A stretch of DNA of 64,000 nt from an uncultured Pseudomonadota bacterium (lineage in GTDB: Bacteria; Pseudomonadota; Alphaproteobacteria; RF32; CAG-239): the NCBI GenBank assembly GCA_949300375.1, contig CASGEB010000001.1, forward strand, positions 12,468-76,467, in the 5' to 3' direction. Shown here piece by piece: positions 1 through 62,250 of this stretch. Each line of letters starts with the position of its first letter. Positions within the stretch are counted from its first letter, which is position 1. The notes under the pieces were generated by a model. It made no database searches and was not told the origin of the DNA. It saw only the letters and a list, made by a program, of their open reading frames with translations. The position numbers and the translations under genes were made by a program.

Positions 1-1
1 C

Positions 2-1024
2 AAGACTGAAGCTGTTTTGCGCCGCGACGAAATTATTCCGCGGGAAAAATTCAAAAACGGCGACCGCGTCCGCGCCTATGTTCTGGATGTTCGCCGCGAA
101 ACCAAAGGCCCGCAGATTTTCTTGTCCCGCACTTGCCCGGAATTTATGGCCAAATTGTTTGCCTCTGAAGTTCCGGAAATTTATGACGGCATTGTCAAGA
201 TTGTCGCTGTTGCCCGCGATCCGGGGTCAAAAGCCAAAATCGCCGTCAAAACCGATGATATGACCATTGACGCTGTCGGCGCCTGTGTTGGCCTGCGCGG
301 TATTCGCGTTCAGGCGGTTGTAACAGAACTCCAGGGTGAAAAAATTGATATCGTTCCTTACAGCGAGGATAAAGCCCAATACATCGTCAGCGCTTTGGCG
401 CCGGCCGAGGTTACCAAAGTCGTTTTGGATGAAGAAAACAACCGCATTGAAGTCGTTGTGCCTCAGGAGCAGTTTTCGGTTGCCATCGGCCGCCGCGGTC
501 AAAATGTCAAATTGGCATCCCAGCTGCTGGGCTGCGACATTGACGTTCTGACGGAAGAACAAGAGCAGGAACGCCGTTCCAACGAAAATAAAGTCCGCTC
601 CCAGCGCTTTATGGAGGCTTTGGATGTCGACGAAATGATTGCCCATCTGCTGATTGCCGAAGGGTTCTCTACTGTTGATGAAATTGCTCTGGTTCCGCTG
701 AACGAACTCTCCGAAATCGAAGGTTTTGACGAAGACCTGGCGGCAGAATTGCAAAACCGCGCAAAAGCTTTTGTTGAAAAACGCAACCACGAATTTGAAG
801 AAAAAAGCAAATCTCTGGGACTGGACAAAGAAATTCAGGCAATCGAAGGCCTGGATCAGGATATGCTTTTGACATTGGCTTCAAAAGGTGTTAAAACCAT
901 TGACGACTTGGCCGATTTGGCTGCCGATGAACTGATTGAGATTTTGGGAGAAAATACTTTGACCGAAGTTGAAGCGGAAAAAATCATTATGGCTGCCCGG
1001 GCTCATTGGTTTGAAGAGGAATAA
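2..1024 (+). CDS. nusA: Transcription termination/antitermination factor NusA, C-terminal part (5' end lies upstream of the window)
   Basis: The reading frame runs in from the window edge. It has S1/KH-type motifs (KNGDRVRAYV, GACVGLRGIRVQAVV, IGRRGQNVKLASQL) and two acidic C-terminal HhH-like repeats. It shows nusA-ylxR-infB synteny and a TAATG overlap with the next gene. Confidence 0.95.
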   Translation, partial: KTEAVLRRDEIIPREKFKNGDRVRAYVLDVRRETKGPQIFLSRTCPEFMAKLFASEVPEIYDGIVKIVAVARDPGSKAKIAVKTDDMTIDAVGACVGLRGIRVQAVVTELQGEKIDIVPYSEDKAQYIVSALAPAEVTKVVLDEENNRIEVVVPQEQFSVAIGRRGQNVKLASQLLGCDIDVLTEEQEQERRSNENKVRSQRFMEALDVDEMIAHLLIAEGFSTVDEIALVPLNELSEIEGFDEDLAAELQNRAKAFVEKRNHEFEEKSKSLGLDKEIQAIEGLDQDMLLTLASKGVKTIDDLADLAADELIEILGENTLTEVEAEKIIMAARAHWFEEE

Positions 1025-1596
1025 TGGCAACCGCGAAAGAAATAAGAAAATGCATTGTCAGCGGTGAGGTGCTGGAGAAGGAACAACTTCTCCGCTTTGC
1101 CCTCACGCCTGACCGGCAGATTGTTCCGGATTTCAAAAAAAAGATTTCCGGAACCGGGATATATGTCAAAAACTCCCGGAAATCCCTCACCGTTGCAATT
1201 GAAAAAAACTTATTTTCCAAAGCCTGCAAAAAGAAAGTCAAAGTTGACGCCCAGTTGATCAGCCTGGTAGAAAACCTGCTAAAAAAACGCGGTTTGGAGC
1301 TGATTTCTCTTTCCCGCAAGGCCGGAATTTTGCTAACCGGATTTGAAAAAGTCAGTGAAGCGGTCAAAAAAAACAAAGCCGCTTTCATTCTGGAAGCAGC
1401 AGACGCCGGAACCGACGGGCATAATAAGATTTTATCTTTATCTCAGGGATTAGAAATTTTTAACTTATACAGTGTTGAGGAGTTAGACAAGGCATTAGAC
1501 AAAGTAAACACGGTTCACATAGCTTTCAAAAAAAGCGAAATGGCAAAATCCGTACATACGGAACTGGCCAGAATCAAAAATTTTCTAAACTCATAG
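1024..1596 (+). CDS. YlxR/DUF448-type RNA-binding protein with a C-terminal L7Ae-like half
   Basis: 190 aa lying between nusA and infB, the conserved ylxR position. The N-terminus is [13 protein letters not shown]-like. The start overlaps the nusA stop. Confidence 0.75.
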
Positions 1597-1627
1597 AATA
1601 AAGACGCAAATACGGAGAAAAAATTAT

Positions 1628-4105
1628 ATGACAGAAACAGAAGATAATGCAAAAAGCAAACTCACATTATCCGGAAAACTCACGCTGAAATTGGGCGATA
1701 AAGCCCAAAATAAAAAAGGGGACGGCAAAAAAGTCATTCAAGTTGAAGTCCGCAAAAAAAGAATTATTTCCCCGGCCGGTACAACAGCTGCCGAACAGAA
1801 AGTAAAAATTGACGAGGCAACCGCCGCAAAATTAAAGCTGATTGCCGAGGCCAAAGAACACGAGGCGCAAAAACGGCGTGAAGAAGAAGAACGAGAAGCC
1901 CGCCGCCGCGAGGAAGAAGAAAAGAAGAAACAAGAACAGGCCGAAGCCGCAGCAAAAGCAGCCAGAGAAGCTTCCGCCCGCGCAGAAGAAACCGAAAAGA
2001 AAAAAGCCGCGCCGACCGAAAATGCCAAACCGGCACCGTCAGAGTCTTTCAAAAACAAAGAGAAAAAAGCCAAAGATTTTGACGATGATGAAGAAGATGA
2101 TGATGGAAATTATTATAAAAAAGGCAAAAAATCTTCTGCAGAAAAAAGTATGTCCCGCGAGAATATGTACGAGCAGGAACGCAAAAAAATCGTTAAACGC
2201 AGCTTTGAACCACAGCGCCGCAGCGGCAAGCTCAGCTTAAACAGCATTACCGACGAAGATGACGATGATTATGGATTCGGAGGCCCGCGCCGACGCTTTA
2301 AGAAAAAGCAGCCTAAACCGGTTGTTGTCCAGCAGCCGCAGGAAAAAATCATCAAAGAAGTAACCATTCCGGAAATCATCACGGTTCAGGAACTGGCTAA
2401 CCGTATGGCCGAAAAAAGCGCCGATGTTATCAAAAAGCTGATGTCCTTAGGCGTTATGGCCACCATCAATCAGCCGATTGACGCCGATACGGCTCAAATT
2501 GTCGTTGAAGAGTTTGGCCACAAGTTCAAACGCGTTGCCGAAAGCGACGTTGAGGTAGGGTTGACCGGACCGGAAGACAAACCGGAAGATTTAAAACCGC
2601 GTCCGCCGGTTGTTACGGTTATGGGACACGTTGACCACGGAAAAACCTCCCTGCTTGACGCCCTGCGCGAAACCAACGTTGCCGCCAAAGAGGCCGGCGG
2701 TATCACGCAGCATATCGGCGCTTATCAGATTCAGGTAGAAACCGGCGACAAAATCACCTTTATTGATACCCCGGGACACGAGGCCTTTTCCGAAATGCGT
2801 GCCCGCGGCGCCAAAGTAACCGACATTGTTGTTTTGGTCGTTGCCGCCAATGACGGCATTATGCCGCAGACGATTGAAGCCATCCGCCACGCACAGGCGG
2901 CCGAAGTTCCGATTGTCGTTGCCATCAATAAAATAGACCTGCCGGGAGCAGACCCGATGAAAGTAAAAACGGCATTGCTTAACCATGGGATTGCCGTTGA
3001 AGAACTTGGCGGCGAATGCCTTTGTGCCGAAGTTTCCGCCAAAAAACGCATTAACATTGACAAACTGGTGGAAGCCATCCTGCTGCAAGCAGAAATTCTG
3101 GATTTGAAAGCCAACCCGAACCGCAAAGCGGAAGGCACGGTCATTGAAGCCAAAATGGAAAAAGGCCGCGGCAGCGTTGCAACCGTTTTGGTTCAACGGG
3201 GAACCATGCACGTCGGCGATATCTGCATTGCTGGCAAAGAATGGGGACACGTCCGCGCAATGTTCAACGAAACCGGCCACAAGATATTTGAAGCCGGCCC
3301 TGCCACGCCGGTTGAAGTACTTGGCTTGCAGGGTACGCCGTCTGCCGGTGATGATTTTATCATTGTCAATGATGAAACTCAGGCCAAAGAAGTTACCAAT
3401 TACCGCATCCGCAAAGAACGCGAAGCTAAACTGGTAAAAAGCGCGAAATCGGCAATGGAACAAATGCTCGACAAGATTAAGTCCGGCGAAGTCAAACACC
3501 TTCCTGTCATCATCAAAGCCGATGTCCAGGGTTCTATTGAAGCGATTGAAGGCACCATCAAAAAACTGTCCAATGACGAGGTTAGCGTCCAGGTTCTGCA
3601 CTCTGCCGTCGGCCCGATTTCAGAATCCGATATTTCTCTGGCCAAAGCATCCAATGCATTTATTATCGGGTTCAATGTCCGTGCCAATCCGCAGGCTCGC
3701 GATATGGCGCGCCGCGACGGCGTAGACATTCGTTATTACTCGATTATTTACGATGTTGCCGATGACGTTAAAAAAGGTCTGGAAGGAATGCTCTCTCCAG
3801 AACTCAAAGAAAAAATCCTGGGCTACGCCGAAATCAGGGAAGTTTATAACATTACCGGCGTTGGCAAAGTCGCCGGCTGTATGGTTACCGAAGGTATGGT
3901 ACGCCGCGGCGCCAAAATCAGGCTGCTGCGTGACAACGTTGTAATCCATGACGGCAGCCTAGGTCAGCTCAAACGTTTCAAAGACGACGTAAAAGAAGTC
4001 AAAGAAGGGTATGAATGCGGTATGAGCTTTGAAAATTACAACGACATTCAAAAAGGAGACTTTATTGAATGTTATGAAATTGAAGAAATCGCTGCAACAT
4101 TATAA
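1628..4105 (+). CDS. infB: Translation initiation factor IF-2
   Basis: 825 aa with GTPase motifs [17 protein letters not shown] and NKID. The N-terminal region is K/E/A-rich low-complexity. An SD (ggaga) lies upstream of the ATG. Confidence 0.97.
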
Positions 4106-4123
4106 CCGGCTGTTTAAATAGTC

Positions 4124-4156
4124 AAAAGCCTCTCTTTTCAGAGAGGCTTTTCTTTT
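4124..4156 (+). terminator. Rho-independent terminator after infB
   Basis: An 11-bp perfect stem aaaagcctctc/gagaggctttt with a 6-nt loop, followed by cttttaatc. Confidence 0.8.
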
Positions 4157-4344
4157 AATCAATCACAAACAACATTATTTCTTTATATTTCGCAATCAGA
4201 TTTTGCAAATTTTTCCGGGCAATAAATTTTAGGAGCGTGATTATAACAGCCTTTTTTTATTTGACAAGTTTTCAATCTCTATTGAGTTTTAAGATAAAAA
4301 ACTCTATATAATATATAGTTTGACTATTATGTTAAGGAATTGAA

Positions 4345-6210
4345 ATGAAATCAGGAAGAAACCTCATTATCTGGCTGGCAATATTCGTGGCGCTGTCGTT
4401 GGTTATGAATATTTTCAACGCCTCTCAGCAGATAAAAGATTATAACAAAGTCGCATTCTCCGACTTCATGAACTATGCCGATAACAAACAATTGTCTGAT
4501 ATTATGGTAGAAGGGCCGAATATTACCGGAACAACCACAAACGGCGAAAAATTTACGACTTATGCCCCTTATGATCCGACAATGATTGAAACCATCCGCA
4601 AAAGCGGCGCAAAGGTCGAGGCAAAACCGGTCGACACGTCGGCCAACACCTTTTGGGGCGTCCTGATTTCATGGTTTCCGATGATTCTGCTTATCGGCGT
4701 CTGGATTTTCTTTATGCGTCAGGCCAACTCCGGCAATAACAAAGCCATGAGTTTCGGAAAATCGCGCGCCCGGCTGATTGAGAACACCAAAAAAGTAACT
4801 TTTGCCGATGTTGCCGGCTGTGATGAGGCCAAAGAAGAACTGGAAGAAGTCATTGAGTTTTTAAAAGAACCGCAGAAATTTCAGCGTCTGGGAGGAAAAA
4901 TCCCCAAAGGCGTATTGCTCGTCGGCCCTCCGGGAACAGGTAAAACCCTGTTGGCAAAAGCCGTTGCCGGTGAAGCAAATGTGCCGTTTTTCTCAATCTC
5001 CGGTTCTGACTTTGTCGAAATGTTTGTCGGCGTCGGCGCTTCCCGCGTGCGTGATATGTTCCAACAGGCCAAAAAGAACTCTCCCTGCCTGCTCTTTATT
5101 GATGAGATTGATGCCGTCGGCCGCCACCGCGGAGCCGGACTGGGCGGTGGAAACGATGAACGCGAGCAAACGTTAAACCAGCTGCTGGTTGAAATGGACG
5201 GTTTTGAAGCCAACGAAAACGTCATCGTCATTGCAGCCACCAACCGGCCGGATGTCTTGGATCCTGCCTTGCTGCGTCCCGGACGATTTGACCGCCAGGT
5301 AACGGTAACCAATCCTGACAAAAAAGGGCGGGAAGAAATCCTGAACGTTCATGTCAAAAAAGTTCCTCTTGCCAAAGACGTCAATATTTCGGTCATTGCC
5401 CGCGGAACGCCGGGTTTCTCCGGTGCCGATCTGGCAAATCTGGTCAACGAGGCAGCTCTGCTGGCTGCCCGCAAAAACAAGCGGAAAGTAACCTCCAAAG
5501 ATTTTGACGAGGCCAAAGACAAGGTTTTGATGGGCGCCGAAAAGAAATCAATGGCTATGGACGAACAGGAGAAAAAACTGACAGCCTACCACGAGGCCGG
5601 GCATGCCATTTGTTCGCTGTATGTTAAAGAAACCGACCCAATTCATAAAGCCACAATTATCCCGCGCGGCCGGGCTTTAGGTATGGTTCAGCAATTGCCG
5701 GAAAAAGACCAGTATTCTTATTCCCGGCTGAAGATGCTCTCCCGTTTGGTCATCATGATGGGAGGACGTGTCGCCGAGGAGCTAAAGTTCGGCCACAATG
5801 CCGTTACTTCCGGAGCATCTTCCGACATTGCCGCAGCCACCAATCTGGCACGTTCAATGGTAACGGAATGGGGAATGAGCGACCTGCTCGGCCCGGTTCT
5901 TTACGCCGAAAACTCCGGCGAGGTTTTCTTGGGAAAATCCGTTACCCAAAATAAAAACATCAGCGAAGAAACTGCCCGGCTGGTCGATTCCGAAATCAAA
6001 CGTATGGTAACGGAAGGATACGAAAAAGCCAAAAAGCTTCTTCAAAATAAAGAAAAAGAGTGGGAACTGCTGGCTCAGGCATTAATAGAGTACGAGACGC
6101 TTACTGGTGATGAAATCAAAAAAGTCATTGCCGGAGAAAAGCTGGATAAAAGCGACGAAGGGCCGGTAAGCGAAGAAAAACGAACTCATTCTTCAGTTCC
6201 GGAAGTTTAA
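4345..6210 (+). CDS. ftsH: ATP-dependent zinc metalloprotease FtsH
   Basis: 621 aa with two N-terminal TM segments, Walker A GPPGTGKT, the AAA second region of homology, and the zinc motif HEAGHA. Confidence 0.97.
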
Positions 6211-18898: not shown

Positions 18899-19498
18899 AT
18901 GAAAAAAGAAAAAATAGTTGATAACCAAAATCCTGAGGAAATCCAAGCTCCGGAAGATATTGAAGACACCGAAGAAACCACCGGAAAAGACATTGAAGAA
19001 CAAGAGGAAGAAGCCATTGATTTCAGTCAGGAAATTGAAAAACTGAAAGCCGAAAATCTCTCTTTAAAAAATGAGTTTTTAAGAGCTTACGCCGATGCGG
19101 AAAATACCAAAAAACGCTGCGCTCAGGAAATTGAAAAAAACACCAAATATGCCATTTCATCTTTTGCCAAAGACCTGCTGAACGTTGCCGATAACCTGCA
19201 CCGCGCGATTGAAGCCTTGCCGGATGCAGAAAAGTCCAAATGCGAAGAGGCAAAAAACCTGCTGAAAGGTGTTGAACTGACCGAAACGGAGTTAATGAAA
19301 GTCTTTAAGAAATTCGGCATTCAAAAAGTAGAAAGCCTGGGAAAAGTCTTTGACCCAAATTACCAAAGAGTTATTCAGGAAGTTGAAGACAAAGAAAAAC
19401 CGGCCGGTACCATTGTTGCCGAACTGCAAACCGGGTATATGATTAATGACCGCATTTTGCGCGAGGCAATGGTCGTCGTTACCAAAGGCGGCAACTAA
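18899..19498 (+). CDS. grpE: Nucleotide exchange factor GrpE
   Basis: The start is MKKEK behind an agaggaaaag SD; the ORF-track start at 18719 overlaps the divergent gene and is unlikely. GrpE similarity includes RAYADAENTKKR and FDPNYQ. Confidence 0.92.
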   Translation: MKKEKIVDNQNPEEIQAPEDIEDTEETTGKDIEEQEEEAIDFSQEIEKLKAENLSLKNEFLRAYADAENTKKRCAQEIEKNTKYAISSFAKDLLNVADNLHRAIEALPDAEKSKCEEAKNLLKGVELTETELMKVFKKFGIQKVESLGKVFDPNYQRVIQEVEDKEKPAGTIVAELQTGYMINDRILREAMVVVTKGGN

Positions 19499-19518
19499 CT
19501 GTTAATAATTCAGAATGT

Positions 19519-19549
19519 AAAACTCCGGAAAACACTTCCGGAGTTTTTT
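19519..19549 (+). terminator. Rho-independent terminator after grpE
   Basis: A 12-bp perfect stem aaaactccggaa/ttccggagtttt with a 5-nt loop and a T run. Confidence 0.85.
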
Positions 19550-19560
19550 ATATATTTGGT

Positions 19561-19796
19561 AACCACAAAACACAGTTTTATAAAAGGCTGGTGCTACGCA
19601 GTTACTTTCCAACAACGTGTACCAAACAGATACACGAGGAAAAAAGAAACAAGCATGACCGATCTTAAAAAATTAAAACTTGATATATGAGGCAGATAAT
19701 AAGAAAAGGAAATTTTGGCGACAGGAGTGTATAAAAACATACATGACTTAGCCAAAATTTCCTTTTCTGTATTAGGTGCCCATAGAGCAAGTTTTA
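19561..19796. repeat. Nested-palindrome element locus 1: degenerate A-type unit plus intact B-type unit
   Basis: The B unit has lower stem aagaaaaggaaattttggc/gccaaaatttccttttct and upper stem tgtat/ataca. The right end gcaagttttaaa contains the fabG stop codon. Confidence 0.8.
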
Positions 19797-20531
19797 AATC
19801 ATGGCCATTCCGCCATTGATATTAATAGTCTGCCCCGTAATATACTGCGCCTCATCGGAAGCCAAAAATGCCACAACATTGGCAATATCCTGAGCTTCAC
19901 CGAGCTTGCCTTCCGGAATTTTCGCCAACAGGGCTTTTTTAACATCTTCCGGCAAAACATCAGTCATCGGCGTACGGATAAAGCCCGGCGCAATCGAGTT
20001 TACGGTAATGCCGCGGGAACCGACTTCCTGAGCCAGACATTTGTTCATGGCAATCATACCGGCCTTGGAAGCGGAATAGTTGGCTTGGCCGGCATTCCCG
20101 GTAACACCGACAACCGAGGCAATACCGATGATACGGCCGTAACGGCGTTTCATCATACCGCGAACGGCAGCTTTTGCCAATTTGAAACCGGCGGAAAGGT
20201 TAACATCCAAAACCAGCTGCCAGTCTTCATCACTCATTCTGATAAAGAGATTGTCGCGTGTCAAACCGGCATTATTTACCAAAATATCAATACGGCCGAG
20301 CTTTTCCTCAACTTTTTCAACCAAAGACTTTACATCTTCAGGATTTGTCAGGTTAGCCGTAAAGACCTCAACATTGGAACCGAGTTCTTCTTTCAGTTTA
20401 AGCATTGGTTCTTCGCGCATATCGGTCAAAGCCAATGTAGCGCCCTGAGCATGCAGCGTCCGGGCGATTTTATCACCCAAACCGCCGGCGGCACCGGTAA
20501 TCAGGGCAATTTTTCCATCTAATCTAAACAT
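19794..20531 (-). CDS. fabG: 3-oxoacyl-[acyl-carrier-protein] reductase FabG
   Basis: 245 aa SDR with TGAAGGLG, NNAG and the YSASKAG catalytic motif. It lies directly downstream of fabD. Confidence 0.93.
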   Translation of the reverse strand: MFRLDGKIALITGAAGGLGDKIARTLHAQGATLALTDMREEPMLKLKEELGSNVEVFTANLTNPEDVKSLVEKVEEKLGRIDILVNNAGLTRDNLFIRMSDEDWQLVLDVNLSAGFKLAKAAVRGMMKRRYGRIIGIASVVGVTGNAGQANYSASKAGMIAMNKCLAQEVGSRGITVNSIAPGFIRTPMTDVLPEDVKKALLAKIPEGKLGEAQDIANVVAFLASDEAQYITGQTININGGMAMI

Positions 20532-24383: not shown

Positions 24384-24860
24384 ATGAACAAAAATCAATC
24401 AGATAAGGAATTATACATTATACATACTTCTAAAAAGTTTTTTTTGAATATTTTCTTAATATTGTTAAGTTCAATTATTGCAATTCTTGTTATTATGATA
24501 TTTGCAATAACCCAAAAACACCAAATATATGTCCCTTTTATCGCCATGATACTGTTGATGGATATCTTATTCGCTTTAAAATTTTTATCAATTATTACTT
24601 CCAAAACAAACGGTATGATAATAAAAACAGACGGAATTGTCTGCCAACTTCATCCCTACAACCCCCCAAAATTCTATCCATTCGAAAATCTTAAAAATAT
24701 TTTTCCTGACAGCAAATACCCGCAAAAAGTACTTATTCTTGATTATGGTACAAAAAAAGGAATCATTTTTTTCAGCCTTTACAAAGAACCTCAAGAACAA
24801 ATTTTAGCACAAATTATATCTGCCTGGGAACAATATAAACAATACAAAAAACAACAATAA
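24384..24860 (+). CDS. Hypothetical membrane protein (two TM helices plus a small soluble domain)
   Basis: 158 aa in a very AT-rich stretch, with an SD aaggaaa 7 nt upstream. Its architecture resembles that of the next gene. Confidence 0.5.
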   Translation: MNKNQSDKELYIIHTSKKFFLNIFLILLSSIIAILVIMIFAITQKHQIYVPFIAMILLMDILFALKFLSIITSKTNGMIIKTDGIVCQLHPYNPPKFYPFENLKNIFPDSKYPQKVLILDYGTKKGIIFFSLYKEPQEQILAQIISAWEQYKQYKKQQ

Positions 24861-24877
24861 AAATTTTATGCTGACTA

Positions 24878-25378
24878 ATGAATCAAGAATTCAAAGTTTC
24901 TAAATCCCGTTGTTCTGAAATAATCCGCATTACGCTTCCATGCGTCCTTTGCAGCGGTATCTTAACCATACACTATGCAGATAAAGATCCTTTAAGAGCG
25001 GCTTTTTTAGCCGTTATATTTTTATATTCCCTGTACCTGTGCATAAAATACATTCAGATAAGAAACAAACCCCTCTTAATCATAACCTCTCAGGGAATTG
25101 TCGACAATTATTACGGATTTGACTTTATTTATTATTCCGAAATACAGAATATTGAGCTGATAAATCATAAAAAACAGAACACAATCAAAATTAAGATTAA
25201 AAATATCAACAGCATTCTTCAAAGATTAAATAAACCTCAAAGATTACTCCGAAAACTAAAAAGACAGTACAATAAATATTGCATACAAGTCCCTACTTAT
25301 CTCTTTCAAGAAGATACAGAAGAAATATTCACCGTTCTTAACAACGCTTTTAATGAGCACCAACAGCAAAATAATTAA
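24878..25378 (+). CDS. Hypothetical membrane protein (two TM helices plus a small soluble domain)
   Basis: 166 aa, AT-rich, in tandem with the previous gene and with the same predicted topology. The motif LLIITSQGIV matches GMIIKTDGIV in its neighbour. Confidence 0.5.
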   Translation: MNQEFKVSKSRCSEIIRITLPCVLCSGILTIHYADKDPLRAAFLAVIFLYSLYLCIKYIQIRNKPLLIITSQGIVDNYYGFDFIYYSEIQNIELINHKKQNTIKIKIKNINSILQRLNKPQRLLRKLKRQYNKYCIQVPTYLFQEDTEEIFTVLNNAFNEHQQQNN

Positions 25379-25484
25379 CTGCTTTTCTCTTCGGCTAAAA
25401 TTACCACAAAAACATAAAAACACCTTAAATAAACCCTTTTTATTTATACATGCCTTAAACATCTCTACAAGTGAAAAACACCGG

Positions 25485-25754
25485 CAACCGCAGAACGCAG
25501 TTTTTACCAAAAATTACGAAGAATGAGGCTAGTAATAAGAAAAAACCTTTAAGGCGACAGGAGTGTACGTAGTGGTACATGATTAGCCTTAAGAACTTTC
25601 TATACTAAACACCCTTTCAAGCCGCTGTAAAACTGCGGTATGTGAGTCAGATAATAAGAAAAAAGAATTTTAGCGACAGGAGTGTATAAAGACATACATG
25701 ACTTAGCTAAAATTCTTTTTTCTGTATTAGGTGACCGCAGAGCGCGGTTTTACC
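25485..25754. repeat. Nested-palindrome element locus 2: array of a terminal fragment, an A-type unit and a B-type unit
   Basis: The A unit is at 25521-25610 (stem partly decayed, upper stem tgtac/gtaca). The B unit is at 25647-25754 (stem agaaaaaagaattttagc/gctaaaattcttttttct, upper stem tgtat/ataca). It ends 1 nt before the hppA stop. Confidence 0.85.
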
Positions 25755-28166
25755 CTATATTTTCATCTTGTAGAAAGACCGATATACAAACACCAATCCC
25801 AACAATAAGAAGAAAATACCCAGGCCGAGAGATACACATCTCGGAGCCGCTACGGCCATCTCAACCGCCAGCAAACCGAACAACGTCGTAAATTTGATAA
25901 TCGGGTTGAGAGCAACGGAAGACGTGTCTTTGAACGGATCACCGACCGTATCGCCGACAACCGTCGCATCATGCAGCGGCGTGCCTTTCTCGTTCAAATC
26001 GACCTCAACCACTTTCTTGGCGTTATCCCATGCGCCGCCGGCATTCGCCATAAACAAAGCCTGGAACAAACCAAATACGGCAATTGAAATCAGATAGCTT
26101 GCAAACAGATTTGCGTCAAAGCAGGCAAAAGCAATCGTAAAGGAAAAGATTACGATAAAGATGTTAAACATACCCTTTTGCGCATAAATCGTGCAAATCT
26201 TGACCACTTCCTGAGAATCTTTCTGCGAAGCAGCTTTCTTACCGCTCAGTTTGATATGTTTTTTAATAAAATCAACCGCACGATAAGCACCGGTCGAAAC
26301 CGCCTGCATTGAAGCGCCGGAGAACCAGTAAATCACCGCACCGCCGAGAATAAGGCCGAACAGGACTTGCGGATCCAGCAGATTCAGTTTCAGGTTAAGC
26401 AGCAGGATAATCGAGAAAATCATCGTCGTTGCGCCGATAACGGCCGTACCGATAAGCACCGGCTTGGCCGTTGCTTTAAAGGTATTTCCGGCGCCGTCAT
26501 TAGCCTCCAGCAAATGTTTGCCTTGCTCAAAATTCGGTTTAAAGCCGTATTTTTTCTCAATATCTTTATCAACGTTCTTAATACCTTCAATCTGAGAAAG
26601 TTCAAAAACAGACTGGGCATTGTCGGTTACCGGACCATAGCTGTCTACGGCAATCGTAACCGGCCCCATGCCAAGCATACCGAAAGCCACCAGACCAAAA
26701 GCAAACACTGTCGGATAAACCATAAAGCTGTCCAAACCGGATTGAGCGGTAAAGAATGCAACCACCATCAGGCCGACCATAACGGCACCTTGCCAGAAAG
26801 CCGAGAAATTACCGGCAACAATACCGGAAATAATATTCAGCGAAGCACCGGCCTCACGGCTGGATTTGACAATTTCCTGAACATGCTGGGATTTTGACGA
26901 AGTAAAGATTTTGGTAAATTCCGGAATCAAAGCCGCAGCCAAAGTACCGCAGCTGATAATCAGAGAAAGTCTCCACCACAAATCGGGGCTGAGATCGCCG
27001 ATCATCACATAAGAAACGCCGAAAGTAACGGCAATCGAGATAATGGAAGTAAACCAAATCAGGCTGGTCAATGGTTTTTCAAAATCAAAAAATTCCTTTT
27101 TGCCGTAAAGGGCGCAAGAAACTTTGTTATTGAGCCAGTAAGAAACTAATGAAGTAATAATCATCAGGAGTCTCATGGCAAAAATCCAGACAATCAGACG
27201 AGCCTGAAAATCAATGCCGTTCGGCATCAGGGTCAAATCGCCGTTCGGGGCATACATCATACCGGCGCCCAAAACGATAAAGCTGATAAGAGCCACGCCG
27301 GTAACGCCGTAAGTTTCAAAACCATCGGCAGTCGGGCCGACGGAGTCGCCGGCATTATCACCGGTACAATCGGCAATCACGCCCGGATTGCGGGCATCAT
27401 CTTCACCGATTTTGAAAATAATTTTCATCAGGTCTGCGCCAATATCGGCGATTTTGGTAAAAATACCGCCGCAAATACGCAAAGCCGCCGCCCCTAAAGA
27501 TTCACCGATGGCAAATCCGATAAAGCAGGCGCCGGCGCTTTCTTTCGGCACAAACAACAAAATGGCAATCATCATAATCAGTTCAACGCAAATCAGCAAA
27601 ACGCCGATAGACATACCGGAACGCAGCGGCAGGCTCATAACCTTGTAAGCCTTGGCTTCCAGAGAAGAAAATGCTGTGCGGGCATTGGCATAATTGTTAA
27701 TGCGCATACCAAACCAGGCCACTGAATAAGAACCGAGAATACCGAGAACCGACCAGGAAAGGATTGTCAGCACTTTCGGCATCGGCGTTGCGTTGAGATA
27801 ATAGAAATAGTAGAAAATACAAACCGCAATAAACAATTCCAGAAGCAAAAGCAGTTTAGCTTGTTGTTTCATATAGGTTTTGCAGGTCGCATAAATCAGT
27901 TCCGATACTTTCAGCATGGCTTCGTGAGCAGGCATTTTTTTGATTTTAAGAAATTCGTACAAACCAAAAAGCATACCAAGGACGCAAATGCTCATGCCGT
28001 AAAACAAAATCTGCGATCCGAGGACGGAATAACCGAAGATATTGTATTCCACATCCAAAGACGGAATTTTGAGGTCGATTTCTGAAGCATACGCCCCTTG
28101 AACCACCCCGACCAGCGCCAGCATCAGAGCGCCGGCGAAAGTCTTAAATTTTTTCAAACCAAACAT
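25755..28166 (-). CDS. hppA: Membrane-bound proton/sodium-translocating pyrophosphatase
   Basis: Multi-TM protein with GDNAGD- and DTVGDPFKDT-type motifs and GNTFKAT. The start chosen is MFGLKK (28166, SD aaggaaaa). The ORF-track start at 28307 adds 47 non-membrane residues and is unlikely. Confidence 0.9.
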   Translation of the reverse strand: MFGLKKFKTFAGALMLALVGVVQGAYASEIDLKIPSLDVEYNIFGYSVLGSQILFYGMSICVLGMLFGLYEFLKIKKMPAHEAMLKVSELIYATCKTYMKQQAKLLLLLELFIAVCIFYYFYYLNATPMPKVLTILSWSVLGILGSYSVAWFGMRINNYANARTAFSSLEAKAYKVMSLPLRSGMSIGVLLICVELIMMIAILLFVPKESAGACFIGFAIGESLGAAALRICGGIFTKIADIGADLMKIIFKIGEDDARNPGVIADCTGDNAGDSVGPTADGFETYGVTGVALISFIVLGAGMMYAPNGDLTLMPNGIDFQARLIVWIFAMRLLMIITSLVSYWLNNKVSCALYGKKEFFDFEKPLTSLIWFTSIISIAVTFGVSYVMIGDLSPDLWWRLSLIISCGTLAAALIPEFTKIFTSSKSQHVQEIVKSSREAGASLNIISGIVAGNFSAFWQGAVMVGLMVVAFFTAQSGLDSFMVYPTVFAFGLVAFGMLGMGPVTIAVDSYGPVTDNAQSVFELSQIEGIKNVDKDIEKKYGFKPNFEQGKHLLEANDGAGNTFKATAKPVLIGTAVIGATTMIFSIILLLNLKLNLLDPQVLFGLILGGAVIYWFSGASMQAVSTGAYRAVDFIKKHIKLSGKKAASQKDSQEVVKICTIYAQKGMFNIFIVIFSFTIAFACFDANLFASYLISIAVFGLFQALFMANAGGAWDNAKKVVEVDLNEKGTPLHDATVVGDTVGDPFKDTSSVALNPIIKFTTLFGLLAVEMAVAAPRCVSLGLGIFFLLLGLVFVYRSFYKMKI

Positions 28167-28394
28167 ATGATTTTCCTTATAGATTGATACCAACAAACCA
28201 ACGGAAACCAAACGGATTCCCGCCGTGGTTCTGCCCGTTATCTTATTATTTCTTTCTAAACAATCGGTTAAGAATCGACAAATATAATCTTTCCGCTCCG
28301 GCATCAAAAATATTGTTGGAAAAGAAAAAGATTTATTTTGGCATCAGCCCCGGGCGTGCTAATATAATTATGTATGATTTTGAGGAGAAAAAAG

Positions 28395-36967: not shown

Positions 36968-36983
36968 AAACTAAAAAATCATC

Positions 36984-37020
36984 AAAAAAGACCGGAAAGT
37001 TTAATTTTCCGGTCTTTTTT
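36984..37020. terminator. Bidirectional hairpin terminator
   Basis: Stem aaaaaagaccggaaa/tttccggtctttttt between convergent ORFs. Confidence 0.85.
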
Positions 37021-37021
37021 A

Positions 37022-37726
37022 TTATAATTTAAAGTAATCTTCAAAAGAAATATACTCCCGGCAATTCTGCTCTTTCGCACCAAGAAGCTCTGCCCCGACG
37101 CAAATGCCTGCGATATACAACGGAACAACTTTTCTTTCTTTATAAAGTTTATCCGGATATTGTTTTACCCGCGCCGCAGCAAAATAAGCATTATAAGGCT
37201 TGGCATATTTCACCAGATGCTTCCATGAAACCTCTGCGCAAAATTCTTTCGGAGTAATCAGATAACTATTTGTCATCTTTTTTTGAAAATCTTTATCAAA
37301 TTCTGTATGAAAATATACGCCGCCGATACAATATCCTGTTTGATTTTGAAAGGGCGGAAGCATTAATGCGCTAAAACTGATATAACTCCTGTCTTTTATT
37401 TTGGCTCCGTATCCGACCGGATCTTGATAAAAGGTTTCATACCCCAGAGTATCTTCCGAAAAATCTCGCTGAAAAACCAGCTTGTCTTCTTGAACCACGC
37501 TAAAAAAAGGATGTCCGGTAAAAGTTTCTTCTTCAATCGTTGCAAAAGAACTCAGAGAAAATCGCGTCGGCTTATCCATAAAAATAAACCATTGCCGTTT
37601 CTGCCACATAGTTTCCGAACCCAATTCCATTGCCAAAATTTTATACGACAGAGAACATTTAACGCTAAATTTCACAAAACGTCCGTCCCACCAGCAAGGC
37701 GGTAAAATTTCCTTATAAATTTCCAT
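37022..37726 (-). CDS. Hypothetical protein
   Basis: The ORF runs to 37795. The ATG at 37726 (MEIYKE) is preferred. No recognisable motif. Confidence 0.45.
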   Translation of the reverse strand: MEIYKEILPPCWWDGRFVKFSVKCSLSYKILAMELGSETMWQKRQWFIFMDKPTRFSLSSFATIEEETFTGHPFFSVVQEDKLVFQRDFSEDTLGYETFYQDPVGYGAKIKDRSYISFSALMLPPFQNQTGYCIGGVYFHTEFDKDFQKKMTNSYLITPKEFCAEVSWKHLVKYAKPYNAYFAAARVKQYPDKLYKERKVVPLYIAGICVGAELLGAKEQNCREYISFEDYFKL

Positions 37727-38426: not shown

Positions 38427-38506
38427 TCAAATCCGCCGGGACTCAACACAAACAAAAACCACCCGCTAAAGGGGTGGCATTTGTTTATGGCGTACCCGGA
38501 GGGATT
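38427..38506. repeat. Direct repeat copy 1 (duplicate of the tRNA-Arg 3' end plus its terminator)
   Basis: 80 nt, 79/80 identical to 38610-38689. It contains tggcgtacccggagggatt (the last 19 nt of the tRNA, minus strand) and the hairpin ccaccc/gggtgg. Confidence 0.95.
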
Positions 38507-38609: not shown

Positions 38610-38689
38610 TCAAATCCACCGGGACTCAACACAAACAAAAACCACCCGCTAAAGGGGTGGCATTTGTTTATGGCGTACCCGGAGGGATT
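38610..38689. repeat. Direct repeat copy 2 (overlaps the genuine tRNA-Arg 3' end and its terminator)
   Basis: See copy 1; the period is 183 nt. Confidence 0.95.
38630..38661 (-). terminator. Rho-independent terminator of tRNA-Arg
   Basis: On the minus strand the stem is ccaccc/gggtgg, followed by tttttgtttgt, 10 nt after the CCA. Confidence 0.75.
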
Positions 38690-38747
38690 CGAACCCACGA
38701 CCCTCGGCGTCGGAGGCCGATACTCTATCCAACTGAGCTACGGGTAC
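38671..38747 (-). tRNA. tRNA-Arg (anticodon CCG), CCA encoded
   Basis: Manual cloverleaf: acceptor gtacccg/cgggtac, D arm gctc..gagt, anticodon stem tcggc/gccga with loop cuCCGac, T loop ttcgaat. There is one U-U mismatch in the T stem. Confidence 0.9.
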
Positions 38748-48900: not shown

Positions 48901-49035
48901 ATGCTTGAATTTTTAAGATCATTAAACGGCTGGCAGATTGCAGGATTAATCTGGGTCGGATTTACAGTGATTGTATATTTGCTGATGTGGTATGACGTAT
49001 ACAAATACCGCCACATTAACAAATATGATGATTAA
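48901..49035 (+). CDS. Possible 44-aa single-TM peptide
   Basis: MLEFLRSLNGWQIAGLIWVGFTVIVYLLMWYDVYKYRHINKYDD, translated by hand. No clear SD. It is bracketed by a promoter-like site and a strong terminator. Confidence 0.25.
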   Translation: MLEFLRSLNGWQIAGLIWVGFTVIVYLLMWYDVYKYRHINKYDD

Positions 49036-49036
49036 T

Positions 49037-49078
49037 AAAAAACAGGATTCCGGCTTAAAAACCGCAATCCTGTTTTTT
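49037..49078. terminator. Bidirectional hairpin terminator
   Basis: Stem aaaaaacaggatt/aatcctgtttttt with an inner cgg/ccg pairing, between convergent genes. Confidence 0.8.
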
Positions 49079-49775
49079 ATGCCATTTTTTTATAAAAATC
49101 TTTTCTTTCTCTTCGGCTCATTGACCACAAATTTCCCAATCCGTTTATCGGCTGAACTTCATATTTTGATTCAAAATCAAACCCCCGGCTCAAAAACAGA
49201 CTGGTTGTTTTGGTATAACAGTTCATTGGGCAAAAACCGTAAAAATCCACCTGAATCAACCCGGTTTTCCGAAGAACGGCTATTGCCTTTTGATACTCCT
49301 GGCTGGTATTAACCCTGTCGCTGTCATCAAGAATAATCATCCCGCCTTCAGCCAGCTTTTGCACCGCCGCCGCACAACATTCCGCACGTCTTTTACCGTC
49401 GACCACAATAACATCAAATAAATCTTCTTGCTCAAAAATGGCATTTTCATAAATCTCGCCCTCATCCCGCCAGCGAACCTCCAGGTTAGATTCCGTCATT
49501 TCTGCCTGCCATTTCTCAAACCATTTCGGATTATCTTCAATACTAATGACCTTTTCCGCTCTTGCTGCCCAAAAATGCGAGGAAGAACCGCAGCCGTACT
49601 CAAAAATCTTCCTGTTCCGATAATCAAACTGCGACAAATATTCAATCGCCGGAAAAGTGTACCAGGGAATCGGCTTTCCGTCCCGATCGGCACAAATTTT
49701 TTCATCAATAGATTTTTCCAAAGCAAAATCTTTCTGCAGCATTTCAATCGCTTTGGCAAACTTCTCGCTGTACAT
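49077..49775 (-). CDS. Putative class I SAM-dependent methyltransferase
   Basis: 232 aa with a Rossmann-type motif IFEYGCGSSSHFWA..KVISIEDN and a later VVDGKRR...GGMIILDD. The family assignment is tentative. Confidence 0.5.
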   Translation of the reverse strand: MYSEKFAKAIEMLQKDFALEKSIDEKICADRDGKPIPWYTFPAIEYLSQFDYRNRKIFEYGCGSSSHFWAARAEKVISIEDNPKWFEKWQAEMTESNLEVRWRDEGEIYENAIFEQEDLFDVIVVDGKRRAECCAAAVQKLAEGGMIILDDSDRVNTSQEYQKAIAVLRKTGLIQVDFYGFCPMNCYTKTTSLFLSRGFDFESKYEVQPINGLGNLWSMSRRERKDFYKKMA

Positions 49776-53323: not shown

Positions 53324-53871
53324 TAATAGTTCCCCCGCATTCCCATTTCACGGTGAAAATAAGCGCCCAATCGCAAAACAATGTCATTTGCAATAATTTT
53401 TGCCGCATCGGATTGTGTTTTCTTTTGAGCCATAGTTGTTGAATAAGGATTCGCTAAAATATCATAACTCACAAAAGACACGCTGTCCCCTTTCACCAGC
53501 GTTTCATTGCTTGTTGTCGACACCAGTTCATATCTTACGGAATAACGAACACGTTCGCGTGTTGCCGTAATATCCCGGCGCAGCGCCTGCTGAATGATTT
53601 CTTTATCCTGAAGGGTCACAAACAGACGGTATTGCGGATTTTTAGGCATTCCTCTCGGCGTAATCAAATCCAAAAGTTCATTTCGAATTTCCTGACCGAA
53701 ACGGTCTGCAATCGGCTCAACTTTGACTTTAGCCATTTCAGATGTTACCGAAGTATCAAAATTTCCGCTGAAATACCAACCCGAAGAATCCTCTTTCTGC
53801 GCATACAAAGGCTCAAAGCCACAGGCTGATATACAAAATAACGCCAAAAAACCGCCGATTGCTTTTTTCAT
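53323..53871 (-). CDS. lptE: LPS-assembly lipoprotein LptE
   Basis: It has the lipobox ISACG and is about 180 aa. It sits between leuS and holA. Its stop overlaps the holA start by 1 nt. Confidence 0.7.
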   Translation of the reverse strand: MKKAIGGFLALFCISACGFEPLYAQKEDSSGWYFSGNFDTSVTSEMAKVKVEPIADRFGQEIRNELLDLITPRGMPKNPQYRLFVTLQDKEIIQQALRRDITATRERVRYSVRYELVSTTSNETLVKGDSVSFVSYDILANPYSTTMAQKKTQSDAAKIIANDIVLRLGAYFHREMGMRGNY

Positions 53872-54002
53872 ATTCGTCCTTTTATAAAAAATTCACTCAC
53901 AGCAAATTTAACCTCATTTCCGCCGCAAGTCCATAATTTTTTAACGGAAAAACCCCAAAATTACATTAATCCGAACGACAAAAAAGTTTTCCACTTCCAC
54001 CT

Positions 54003-54143
54003 CAGGCCGCTGTAAAAAACGCGGAGAATGAGGCTAGTAATAAGAAAAAAACTTTAAGGCGACAGGCGCGTACATAGACGTACGTAACTTAGCCTTAAAG
54101 TTTTTTTCTGTATTAATAGACCATTATACGCGTTTTTTACGCA
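54003..54143. repeat. Nested-palindrome element locus 3: compact A-type archetype (about 140 bp)
   Basis: The arms are gccgctgtaaaaaacgcggagaatgaggctagtaataagaaaaaaactttaaggc and gccttaaagtttttttctgtattaatagaccattatacgcgttttttacgcaac. The central stem is cgtac/gtacg. The right arm contains the last two codons and the stop of leuS. Confidence 0.85.
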
Positions 54144-62000: not shown

Positions 62001-62250
62001 CCTCAGACCGCTGTAAAAAACGCGATATAAGCGCTAAGCAAAAACAACCGCTACTCCGGTTGTTTTTGTCTGCAAGCTCTTTGTAACATCTTGGCAAGCA
62101 AGGAAAGCGTTAGCAACCGCAGCGCGCCTAGATGCCTAAGTCAGATAATAAGAAAAAAGAATTTTAGCGACAGGAGTGTATAAAAACATACATGACTTAG
62201 CTAAAATTCTTTTTTCTGTATTAGGTGGCCACAGAGCGCAGTTTTTACCC
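62001..62250. repeat. Nested-palindrome element locus 4: left end, a 110-bp insert and a B-type unit
   Basis: The left end ctcagaccgctgtaaaaaacgcg is nearly identical to locus 3. The insert carries the hairpin aaaaacaaccg/cggttgttttt. The B unit is almost identical to 25647-25754. The right end gcgcagtttttac contains the stop of the LptG-like gene. Confidence 0.85.

Follow-up and report, generated by a model that had tools for sequence, protein, structure and literature searches.

In REP/BIME systems, the cognate RAYT (TnpA-REP, Y1/HUH) gene usually has repeats on both sides. Among MITEs, the Correia (NEMIS/CREE) and ERIC types are imperfect palindromes of 100-170 bp with terminal inverted repeats, which are co-transcribed and can be terminators or RNA-processing sites; PMC3184786 and PMC10969869 are reviews. 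REPs are high-copy extragenic palindromes, found chiefly downstream of ORFs where genes are unidirectional or convergent, and they cluster as mosaics with several subfamilies per genome; REP/BIME elements are presumed to be both transcribed and mobilised through single-stranded DNA (PMC3733652, PMC3333891, PMC6006769). IS200/IS605 elements use one strand, carry subterminal hairpins and insert into the lagging-strand template (PMC3333891, PMC6006769, PMC3733652). According to the available part of PMC3049150, BOX (boxA-boxB(n)-boxC), RUP and SPRITE of Streptococcus pneumoniae are modular intergenic repeats with stable folds and variable internal modules, transcribed with their neighbours.

The window, by which we mean the whole 64-kb stretch of DNA that was analysed, carries at 25485-25754 an array of hairpin repeats of ~130 nt each. 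They belong to a previously undescribed family that represents a well-known type of bacterial repeat, though one with unusual structure and polarity. The array consists of one remnant, one decayed unit and one intact unit. With a covariance model, the number of core copies in the window is exactly five, and each lies on the + strand. MAGs of 25 gut alphaproteobacterial species contain ~100 further copies. In a scan of 185,579 species the family was confined to these 25, whose records include the names 'uncultured Azospirillum' and Candidatus Scatocola. The host lineage consists of widespread uncultured gut Alphaproteobacteria of humans, mice, chickens and ruminants, and we know of nothing described about its non-coding repertoire. 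Units occur singly or head-to-tail, with 2-4 per array, and are dispersed at about one per 13 kb. All comparison sequences were metagenome-assembled, and the analysis covered 8-kb MAG pieces and the one 64-kb window; contigs L068 and L069 end inside a unit. The genome scan gave 63 loci, of which L050, L051 and L053 were chance matches to the search pattern and were left out. That search pattern forced TAATAAGAAAA and GCGACAGG to look invariant in the alignments A1, A2 and A4, which is no evidence of conservation; the diverged subfamilies found with the covariance model vary at both.

At the Rfam gathering threshold, tRNA-Arg alone passed in the whole window and the units matched no family; in E-value mode, the best matches for 25400-25800 were miRNA-type hairpins, meaningless at 27 bits against a threshold of 70. 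BLAST of the phage and plasmid collections with the unit gave no match, nor did an exact-pattern scan of IMG/VR for it, and string searches of the literature for the core motif returned unrelated primer matches only. An exact-protein look-up of the leuS protein found none on record.

The full unit is a single imperfect hairpin of ~127 nt (up to ~135) with four helices. The intact B-type unit of the array (25627-25753, + strand; model match 25642-25741, 111.6 bits) comprises, from the outside in, the outer stem GTAAAACTGCG/CGCGGTTTTAC, a 3x3 loop, middle stems, TAATA/TATTA, an 18-bp lower stem, an internal loop and the apical hairpin GTGTAT..ATACAT. Its lower stem, agaaaaaagaattttagc/gctaaaattcttttttct (25657-25674/25706-25723), is 18 nt long and 100% complementary and recurs at 62.2 kb. 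Folding of the 146-nt B unit gave an MFE of -59.9 kcal/mol, whereas shuffled sequences reached -27.2 +/- 3.8 (z = -8.6). The outer stem GTAAAA(A)CNGCG/CGCNGTTTT(T)TAC forms a terminal inverted repeat of 10-12 bp with the terminal 7-mers (A/T)AAAAAC ... GTTTTT(T/A); on both strands it ends in CGCG followed by T4-T6, and what stands before the hairpin foot is GCCGCTG on one strand and the last codon of the gene on the opposite one. Before the outer stem of full-length units lies a conserved 5' tail (tttcaagccgct; 25615-25626, +), and YYTTCARGCCGCTG stands upstream of GTAAAA in solitary units whose flanks are unrelated. The unit is constant in its apical GTGTAC-type hairpin, in its internal loops and at several purine-purine mismatches. 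A mini-ORF reading (ATG ACT TAG in the upper stem, SD-ATG in the tail) was rejected, as it is not conserved across subtypes.

An earlier note on this DNA had recognised two stacked stems. These are real, but the unit is larger, with two more covarying helices outside the 'lower stem' of that description. The A-type unit at 25509-25619 (+) has an intact 5' half and apical hairpin, and its weak model match (25523-25619) scores 55 bits, against 107-115 bits for intact units. Its lower stem, previously called decayed, is indeed broken, because the 3' half is a degenerate junction form, TTTC(C/T)ATA(C/T)TAA..CCTTTCARGCCGCTG. L055 and L011 have this form at the orthologous position, and further MAGs show it at different sites, so private decay is not the whole explanation. 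The 'extra terminal fragment' reported at 25487-25507 is also present and can now be assigned: 25487-25508 (+) is the 3' box ccgcagaacgcagtttttacc (3'-box consensus with 1 mismatch) of a lost third unit at the array's far end, where the relatives L055 and L011 keep a complete B unit ending in that box.

Elsewhere in the window, a solitary unit with the lower stem GGAAATTTTG (variant aagaaaaggaaattttggc/gccaaaatttccttttct) lies at 19673-19797 (+; model match 19687-19786, 115 bits). On its 5' side, at 19570-19672 (+), is a 'Y' module, a shorter related hairpin with the apical GTGTAC..(G)ATACAC, which is itself a dispersed repeat flanking units at many loci; strain variant L066 carries a second 'Y' copy within the unit's 3' loop. 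A solitary full-length A-type unit at 54006-54140 (+; tail, then hairpin 54012-54140; model match 54028-54127, 107.5 bits) has the lower-stem variant agaaaaaaactttaaggc/gccttaaagtttttttct. The unit at 62007-62249 (+) is composite: its 5' tail and outer-stem strand (62007-62024) are followed by an 'X' module of ~110 nt (62025-62135), which holds a canonical terminator-like hairpin aaaaacaaccg..cggttgttttt, then by a B-type core (model match 62136-62235) and a 3' box to 62249. An independent assembly, L067, has the identical composite sequence.

Four helices of the unit are kept paired by compensatory change. The earlier note had argued for selection on the fold, be it of RNA or of DNA, rather than on sequence alone, from lower stems that differ yet stay self-complementary (B at 25.7 and 62.2 kb, variants at 19.7 and 54.0 kb), from the covarying upper stems tgtat/ataca, tgtac/gtaca and cgtac/gtacg, and from the loop strands gacagg(a/c)g and (a/g)a(c)ttag, which hardly change. 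We located all of these, and the case is stronger than proposed, with four covarying helices and at least 22 stem versions over 25 species. Covariation was confirmed on the collected copies (61 distinct, from the window and 25 MAG species): 97.6% of cells were paired, against 79-81.4% in shuffles (0/500), and 352 cells were double-sided, against 117 in shuffles, while slid controls were 38-50% paired. Both-side changes occurred at 26 of 43 pairs, and covariation extends to each of the 10 outer-stem pairs. Within the lower stem, a variable stretch of 10 nt exists in 22 versions, the variable cores being perfectly complementary in 44 of 60 copies and carrying one mismatch in 12, and diverged subfamilies with unrelated stem sequences have the same architecture.

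The pairing is strict: 94% of cells are Watson-Crick and, outside one fixed G.U pair (A4 columns 66/84), 1634 cells held 19 G.U and 14 A.C, with 12 of the 19 G.U at a single outer-stem position. In a strand test on wobble pairs the counts were symmetric outside two fixed positions and thus gave no verdict on the RNA strand. The mismatches are purine-purine on one strand only; all conserved ones are pyrimidine-pyrimidine on the mRNA strand. The + strand folds better, with a mean energy of -53.4 kcal/mol versus -47.5 for the other, and the better-folding strand is antisense to the mRNA in 64/68 canonical and 18/19 divergent units. One natural chimera (L054:7308-7407), the only one of its kind, has a 5' arm and a 3' arm that come from different types and form 6 mismatches. 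It follows that the arms can uncouple, although this is almost never seen.

The units are placed with nucleotide precision relative to genes. In 51 of 68 arrays, the array end lies 0-8 nt from a gene's stop codon or supplies it; there, a convergent ORF of at least 80 codons has its stop 8-18 nt past the model core, that is, in or at the 3' box. The stop is one unit length (114-141 nt) away in eight further arrays, and on the opposite array side a stop within 20 nt occurs in 1 of 63. In the window, the TAG stop (25755-25757) of hppA, an H+-pyrophosphatase gene (25755-28307, - strand; Pfam H_PPase, E = 1e-183), directly adjoins the B unit's end, with the junction ...aaaataTAGggtaaaaccgcg. The fabG-like gene at 19794-20531 (-; Pfam adh_short_C2) has its TAA stop (19794-19796) inside the 3' strand of the unit's outer stem, the TAA stop of leuS (54137-54139; Pfam leucyl-tRNA synthetase) is the TAA of the unit's terminal GTAAAAAA, and that of lptF/G (62245-62247; Pfam LptF_LptG) lies inside the 3' box of the 62-kb unit. 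The gene-side junction is nearly always (G)TAA, which is inseparable from the element's own end. The exact abutment could reflect RNA- or translation-level selection instead of target choice.

The polarity of the units is invariant relative to replication-associated strand asymmetry. Whole-locus GC skew was negative on the unit's + strand at 59/59 loci, so that the + orientation is always on the C-rich strand, the leading-strand template. GC3 skew was -0.29 in genes on the unit's + strand and +0.21 in genes on the opposite strand, and the strand asymmetry is thus independent of gene direction. Only leading-strand genes are abutted; lagging-strand genes make up 38% of coding bases and are served by no array. 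All units on a contig shared one orientation in 17/17 further arrays, multi-unit arrays were head-to-tail in 26/26 cases, and no locus had units in both orientations or inverted around a gene as in REPtrons.

Close relatives differ at one and the same junction by the gain, loss or exchange of whole units. The hppA, fabG, leuS and lptF/G orthologues have differing unit types at the same junction, which means that whole units turn over, as had been suspected from the decayed A unit; even strains with identical FabG differ in unit content. The flanking genes (hppA, leuS-lptE, fabG, lptF/G) are syntenic across MAGs. We observed one clean insertion of a 121-nt unit (L024/L028 versus L052), in which nothing but the shared A/T run is duplicated; such runs leave the parsings tried for a target duplication in L024/L052 (TA, TAAAAA or none) ambiguous. 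Solitary copies have no consistent flanking direct repeat, with the stop codon on one side and the conserved tail on the other, and a search of the window for the end motif returned the units themselves only. An all-against-all flank comparison for empty sites found only differently filled ones, so insertion into a naive target was never observed. Homologous recombination through the conserved blocks could yield the same polymorphisms. At one locus, a fabG 99% identical lies beside a grpE 91% identical.

With REP/BIME elements the units share palindromes downstream of ORFs, mosaic clusters and subfamilies. However, REPs measure 20-40 bp, whereas the units have ~127 nt and four helices; the REP foot has an unpaired GTAG (GTGG) or CGTC tag, which is not conserved in the units; and REPs alternate in orientation within a BIME, while the units stand head-to-tail with absolute polarity. 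IS200/IS605 elements are similar in having an orientation tied to the replication fork, as seen here at every locus, and hairpins as recognition elements; they also insert beside a short specific sequence without target duplication (PMC3333891, PMC6006769), a further likeness that our one clean insertion would allow. They differ in having two different subterminal hairpins and no terminal inverted repeat, where each unit folds into a single long hairpin, carries an inverted repeat at its ends and has its better-folding strand on the leading-strand template. BOX elements, as far as the excerpt of PMC3049150 describes them, are likewise modular, stably folding and variable in module number. They come from another host phylum, have another sequence, and their A and C ends pair around B copies, whereas here complete hairpins follow head-to-tail. 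To our knowledge, replication polarity and stop-codon abutment are not features of BOX. Correia and ERIC-type MITEs are also small imperfect palindromes with terminal inverted repeats, but they have TA target duplications and occur in both orientations, where the units are uniform in orientation and their one clean insertion shows no duplication beyond the A/T run. None of these families' sets of defining features was found in the units.

We favour, with moderate confidence, the reading that the units are mosaic, probably mobile hairpin repeats resembling REP/BIME, BOX and IS200/IS605-derived elements, which probably spread by a strand-specific DNA process and would be co-transcribed in 3' UTRs. 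Our model suggests that units would be spread or replaced as modules by such a process coupled to replication, with the folded hairpin as the putative recognised substrate. A candidate is single-strand 'peel and paste' as in IS200/IS605, which has been proposed for REP/BIME with Y1 (HUH) transposases; site-specific recombination would be an alternative process. Such a process, specific to one DNA strand, would explain why the units are polar, why their covariation is purely Watson-Crick and why a target duplication is not apparent. We hypothesize that insertions survive only at the first nucleotides past a stop codon, where the element end (G)TAAAA may supply the TAA itself. A unit there would be co-transcribed in the 3' UTR and would probably serve as, or replace, a terminator or 3'-end-protecting hairpin, a role suggested by the A and T runs that flank the outer stem on both strands. 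A terminator consensus scan around four copies did not call the units, since their hairpin is long and interrupted, and a promoter consensus scan around four copies gave nothing above shuffle expectation. Against mobility of the IS200/IS605 kind speak the single long hairpin in place of two subterminal ones and the strand on which it is more stable: this hairpin, with the purine-purine mismatches, belongs to the leading-strand template, whereas the IS608 paradigm has its active strand on the lagging-strand template. More tentatively, the units may represent a new class of hairpin elements that are mobilised as single strands and share neither sequence nor anatomy with the ends of REP or IS200/IS605, which would integrate strand-specifically exactly at the TAA stop of leading-strand genes and act as mobile, exchangeable gene-end modules (terminators), with a putative enzyme reading the apical hairpin and one strand's purine-purine mismatches; we regard this stronger version as possible but doubtful.

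A competing explanation, which we consider rather unlikely, is that the unit is a purely cis-acting RNA element at the mRNA 3' end (a terminator, a barrier to 3'-to-5' exonucleases or, beside the stop codon, an effector of translation termination) whose fold is selected in the transcript and which spreads only by recombination between 3' ends. REPs, too, are found chiefly 3' of ORFs and are believed to function as RNA (PMC3733652). The unit stands directly after the stop in a single orientation relative to the gene, its outer stem is flanked by A/T runs as in the genome's ordinary terminators, some of which the model weakly picks up (4102-4168, 19497-19569, 36970-37034, 49019-49099), and between hppA and the convergent ORF there is no other terminator-like hairpin. 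This explanation, however, gives no reason for the unit-free lagging-strand genes, and it would have the best-folding strand antisense to the mRNA, the conserved mismatches all pyrimidine-pyrimidine in the transcript and variable helices almost without G.U pairs. The unit moreover interrupts leuS-lptE, which are normally co-transcribed. The strand that folds better would be the transcript if the unit were a gene for a structured small RNA in + orientation, antisense to the 3' end of the neighbouring gene. Conserved purine-rich internal loops, tandem G.A, flips of R.R/WC/R.R (ATA/GAG to GAG/ATA and back), the conserved G.U pair and a (G/A/T)ATAAT hexamer inside the unit, with TTAAAA/GTAAAA 16-17 nt upstream, are consistent with such a gene. 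Yet such promoter-like matches are no commoner than in shuffles, and the putative -35/-10 lies inside the covarying outer and TAATA helices, which a transcript starting there could therefore not form; at half of the sites no gene reads into the unit that way, and there is no Rfam match. We consider a small-RNA gene improbable. Overall, stop-codon abutment, replication polarity and near-exclusive Watson-Crick covariation shift the weight from structured RNA to an element that works at the DNA level on a specific strand and would be transcribed as well.

DNA-level alternatives to mobile repeats were weighed as well. Integron attC sites are structure-conserved, sequence-variable imperfect hairpins immediately 3' of ORFs, often with the stop codon, in which one strand is the active folded form. 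The fixed polarity, strand asymmetry and exchange at a constant junction, right after stop codons that the unit sometimes supplies, could suggest comparable single-strand sites at which a putative site-specific recombinase swaps modules at gene ends. This is very improbable: the terminal 7-mers read AAAAAAC/GTTTTTT and not the core-site consensus RYYYAAC/GTTRRRY, the units are dispersed, tandem units have no ORF between them, and the neighbours hppA, leuS, fabG and lptF/G are syntenic core genes, not cassettes or cassette arrays. We give hardly any credence to an origin without selection on the fold, in which the copies would be recent duplicates of a few palindromic masters whose arms were matched by palindrome-templated (template-switch) repair. 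Pairing that is almost purely Watson-Crick with practically no one-sided intermediates, and the near identity of many copies within subfamilies, would fit it. Against it stand 22 stem versions over 25 species and an architecture common to subfamilies with unrelated stems. Such repair, which the earlier note had named as a possible refutation, may apply where pairing is perfect; it offers no explanation for asymmetric loops, bulges and purine-purine mismatches, which are conserved and not 'corrected', and the recombinant with mismatched arms indicates that arm coupling is not automatic.

The repeat family provides an exceptionally clean data set on structural constraint: four helices covary, non-canonical pairs are conserved and the stem exists in more than 20 versions. 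Its units break assemblies and mark recombination boundaries, which matters for MAG quality and strain tracking. Nucleotide-precise stop abutment, absolute replication polarity and module-level strain turnover are rarely seen together. If the polarity reflects the insertion mechanism, REP-like proliferation would be directly testable in a new system, and the family would point to an unknown enzyme. If it reflects function instead, hairpins located where leading-strand genes end would have a strand-specific role.

Three repeat pieces fill the space between a small ORF (24878-25378, +) and an H+-pyrophosphatase gene (25755-28307, -; Pfam H_PPase). Read from the sequence, these include a 21-nt 3'-box fragment (25487-25508; the 3' box is a unit's terminal motif) and an A-type unit that has lost pairing in its 3' half (~25509-25619). 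The third is an intact B-type unit, which on folding of 25615-25760 (-59.9 kcal/mol, z = -8.6 against shuffles) formed a continuous imperfect hairpin (25627-25753). Its outer stem (GTAAAACTGCG/CGCGGTTTTAC) is followed inwards by a 3x3 loop, two middle stems (both short), TAATA/TATTA, the lower stem, the conserved internal loop and, innermost, the upper stem; the unit holds a perfect 18-nt inverted repeat (arms 25657-25674 and 25706-25723). Full-length units carry a conserved tail, YYTTCARGCCGCTG, before one side only. The two stacked stems described in the earlier note are both real, but belong to a larger unit, a single hairpin that adds the outer and middle stems. The extra terminal fragment it reported is also present, and we identified it as what is left of a third unit, its 3' box; that unit persists whole in the close relative L055.

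All the sequences quoted in that note were found, at 19.7, 25.6, 25.7, 54.0 and 62.2 kb, and the core copies recognized in the window by a covariance model numbered exactly five, each on the + strand. Weaker matches were ordinary hairpins with an A run on one side and a T run on the other, one of which (19519-19547) was scored as terminator-like by a terminator scan. Between ftsK and the array, two small + strand ORFs of 158 and 166 aa (24384-25378), neither with a Pfam match, sit where the region's GC content is lowest (0.376, at 24-26 kb). Elsewhere, an 80-nt direct repeat (38427-38506 and 38610-38689; 99% identical, copies 183 nt apart) overlaps with its second copy the 3' end of tRNA-Arg(CCG) at 38671-38747(-), and resembles the tRNA-end duplication that an element leaves behind on integration or excision.

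Scanning 185,579 species, each represented by one genome, for an exact pattern yielded 63 loci. Three were dismissed as chance pattern matches; the other 60, from 25 species, were in MAGs, the source of all our comparison evidence. Their record titles name uncultured Alphaproteobacteria, 'uncultured Azospirillum' and Candidatus Scatocola (classed in Rhodospirillales by NCBI), and the hosts were human, mouse, chicken and ruminant guts. Over these loci and the window, the covariance model found 103 units in 70 arrays, scoring 100-115 bits on the forward strand and ~40 bits on the reverse; the unit is thus clearly polar. Searches of Rfam 15, IMG/VR, collections of phages and plasmids, and the searchable literature turned up no similar element.

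The proposal that selection acts on the fold was borne out by both the covariation and the nature of the pairing. Across 61 distinct copies and 33 predicted pairs, 97.6% of positions paired, compared with 81.4% in column shuffles (0/500 reached the observed value), double-sided cells numbered 352 against 117, and sliding the partner by 1-3 columns reduced pairing to 38-50%. With the outer stem included (38 full-length units, 43 pairs), pairing was again 97.6%, against 79.1% in shuffles; 26 of the 43 pairs changed on both sides, and all ten outer-stem pairs covaried. Among 60 strictly defined units, the lower stem has 22 versions of its variable 10-nt core; 44 units are perfectly complementary there, 12 carry one mismatch and two are bulged. 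At L054:7308-7407, two types are joined in a chimera that has six mismatches. Subfamilies with entirely different, longer stems (among them the 'GGGTGGAG' type and the types in loci L018, L031 and L012) retain the architecture and the apical GTGTAC..GTACAT hairpin. The apparent invariance of TAATAAGAAAA and GCGACAGG in the alignments is an artefact, since the search pattern demanded them.

Changes on one side only hardly occur in the variable helices. Strict Watson-Crick pairs make up 94% of 1634 cells, with 19 G.U (12 at one outer-stem position) and 14 A.C, leaving out a fixed G.U pair (A4 columns 66/84). RNA helices usually show common wobble intermediates, a pattern from which this near-exclusive Watson-Crick covariation differs. 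Selection on the fold is well supported, and the alternative that the fold is not selected is weak. Mismatched and unpaired positions are strongly asymmetric, with purines on the + strand, including the GA/GG loop, tandem G.A in the upper internal loop, and an R.R/Watson-Crick/R.R motif adjoining the outer stem (ATA/GAG in 16 units, GAG/ATA in seven, also GCA/GGA). Consequently, the + strand is the better fold in 64/68 canonical units (mean -53.4 versus -47.5 kcal/mol) and 18/19 divergent ones.

By crude gene calling, 85 of 100 +-oriented units had an opposite-strand gene on their 3' side. We then searched directly for stops of ORFs of at least 80 codons, measuring their distance from the model core (the matched span). 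In 51 of 68 arrays a stop lay 8-18 nt past the core, that is, in or directly against the 3' box, and in eight further arrays it was one unit length off; on the opposite side, only 1/63 arrays had a stop within 20 nt. Junction sequences revealed that the element end, (G)TAAAAAC, usually supplies the stop through its own TAA; failing that, the stop is a separate one, 0-8 nt upstream. In the window, the genes served are a fabG-like reductase, the H+-pyrophosphatase, leuS (lptE downstream) and lptF/G. Given this placement at convergent gene ends, the + orientation is antisense to the mRNA containing the unit. At eight loci from different MAGs, some with distant subtypes (L009, L010, L018, L021, L042, L045, L046, L060), the unit follows an ORF with a Cys/Lys-rich tail, ...(S/N)CCCKK(A/S)(C/A) (...CNNCKKAC in L021), a gene end that seems persistently occupied by units.

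Unit orientation also followed replication. Units sharing a contig always had the same orientation (17/17 further arrays), and whole-locus GC skew was negative in 59/59 unit-oriented loci (mean -0.144). Measured on their own coding strand, genes lying on the unit's + strand, which account for 38% of coding bases, had a GC3 skew of -0.29 and those on the opposite strand +0.21, so the asymmetry is independent of transcription direction and is the replication skew of the classical kind. The G-rich strand, which is the lagging-strand template, always bears the mRNA-sense version, and the leading-strand template the better-folding version. None of the 70 arrays serves a lagging-strand gene, for which the chance is 0.62^70 (~3e-15) if assignment is proportional to coding bases. 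The window has negative skew from 6 kb on, steadily over the remaining 58 kb; positions 1-6000 (slightly positive GC skew, high AT skew of about 0.2) could mark either a skew switch or one large gene on the + strand.

At orthologous junctions (hppA, fabG, leuS, lptF/G and others), unit type, array length and order vary between species. Loci L024 and L028 differ from L052 by an additional unit of 121 nt, placed after the lptF/G stop and ahead of the resident unit, with no duplication found beyond the A/T run. In the strain contigs L064, L065 and L066, compared over window 19498-20531, FabG protein is identical to the window's and fabG 99.2% and 97.4% identical in DNA, whereas identity in the neighbouring grpE falls to 91.5% and 86.3%. 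The intergenic repeats differ, one contig having an extra 3'-box-plus-Y module and two holding half a unit of a different type. This identity break, which falls in the intergenic space that the repeats fill, suggests a recombination boundary coinciding with the repeats. Two other contigs terminate within a unit, and no empty sites were seen among the compared loci. At L026:902-1075, an otherwise intact unit (76.7 bits) carries an insert, ~70 nt long and G+C-rich, on the 3' side of the apical hairpin, so units can themselves be insertion targets.

Units also carry accessory modules. The ~110-nt X module (window 62025-62135) is nested in the unit's 5' internal loop and includes a hairpin of canonical terminator-like form, AAAAACAACCG..CGGTTGTTTTT, with CTTGGCAAGCAAGGAAAGCGTTAGCAACCGCAGCGCGCCTAGATGCC after it. 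It recurs in many units (L002, L005, L006, L013, L014, L024, L028, L037, L041, L048, L052 and others); the X-plus-unit composite is itself dispersed, and that at 62.2 kb is repeated almost base for base in an independent assembly. The ~85-100-nt Y module (window 19570-19672), with its own closing stem (AAAGGCCGG/CCGGCCTTT) and apical GTGTAC..GTACAC hairpin, is apparently related to the units but shorter and is often found on their 5' side, and L066 has an extra copy in a unit's 3' loop.

A purely mRNA-level role agrees with the stop-codon position, but leaves unexplained the missing units at lagging-strand genes, the Watson-Crick-only covariation and the poorer hairpin of the mRNA strand. An independent small RNA from the + strand is unlikely, as promoter-like matches are at chance level and would sit within covarying helices. 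Absolute replication polarity, hairpin substrates and no target duplication are together the signature of Y1/HUH single-strand transposition, a mechanism established in IS200/IS605 elements and put forward for REP/BIME (PMC3333891, PMC6006769), and REPs lie mainly downstream of ORFs (PMC3733652). By comparison, IS200/IS605 ends have two hairpins whereas the unit has one; relative to IS608 its stable strand is on the 'wrong' template; it fails as a REP on size, tag and alternation and as attC on core sites and cassettes; target duplication, a feature of classical MITEs, is not shown; and no Rfam family matches. The unit works in several respects as these systems do, without their defining features, and we place it among structured mosaic intergenic repeats.

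Given the polarity signature, the REP precedent and the shortfalls of the RNA readings, we favor a model in which units would be spread or replaced through a strand-specific DNA process and survive only at gene ends. There, a unit would be co-transcribed, probably acting as a terminator or protective hairpin. At 53871-54137 a unit separates leuS from lptE, genes commonly co-transcribed in other proteobacteria; if this unit terminates transcription, lptE would need its own promoter there.
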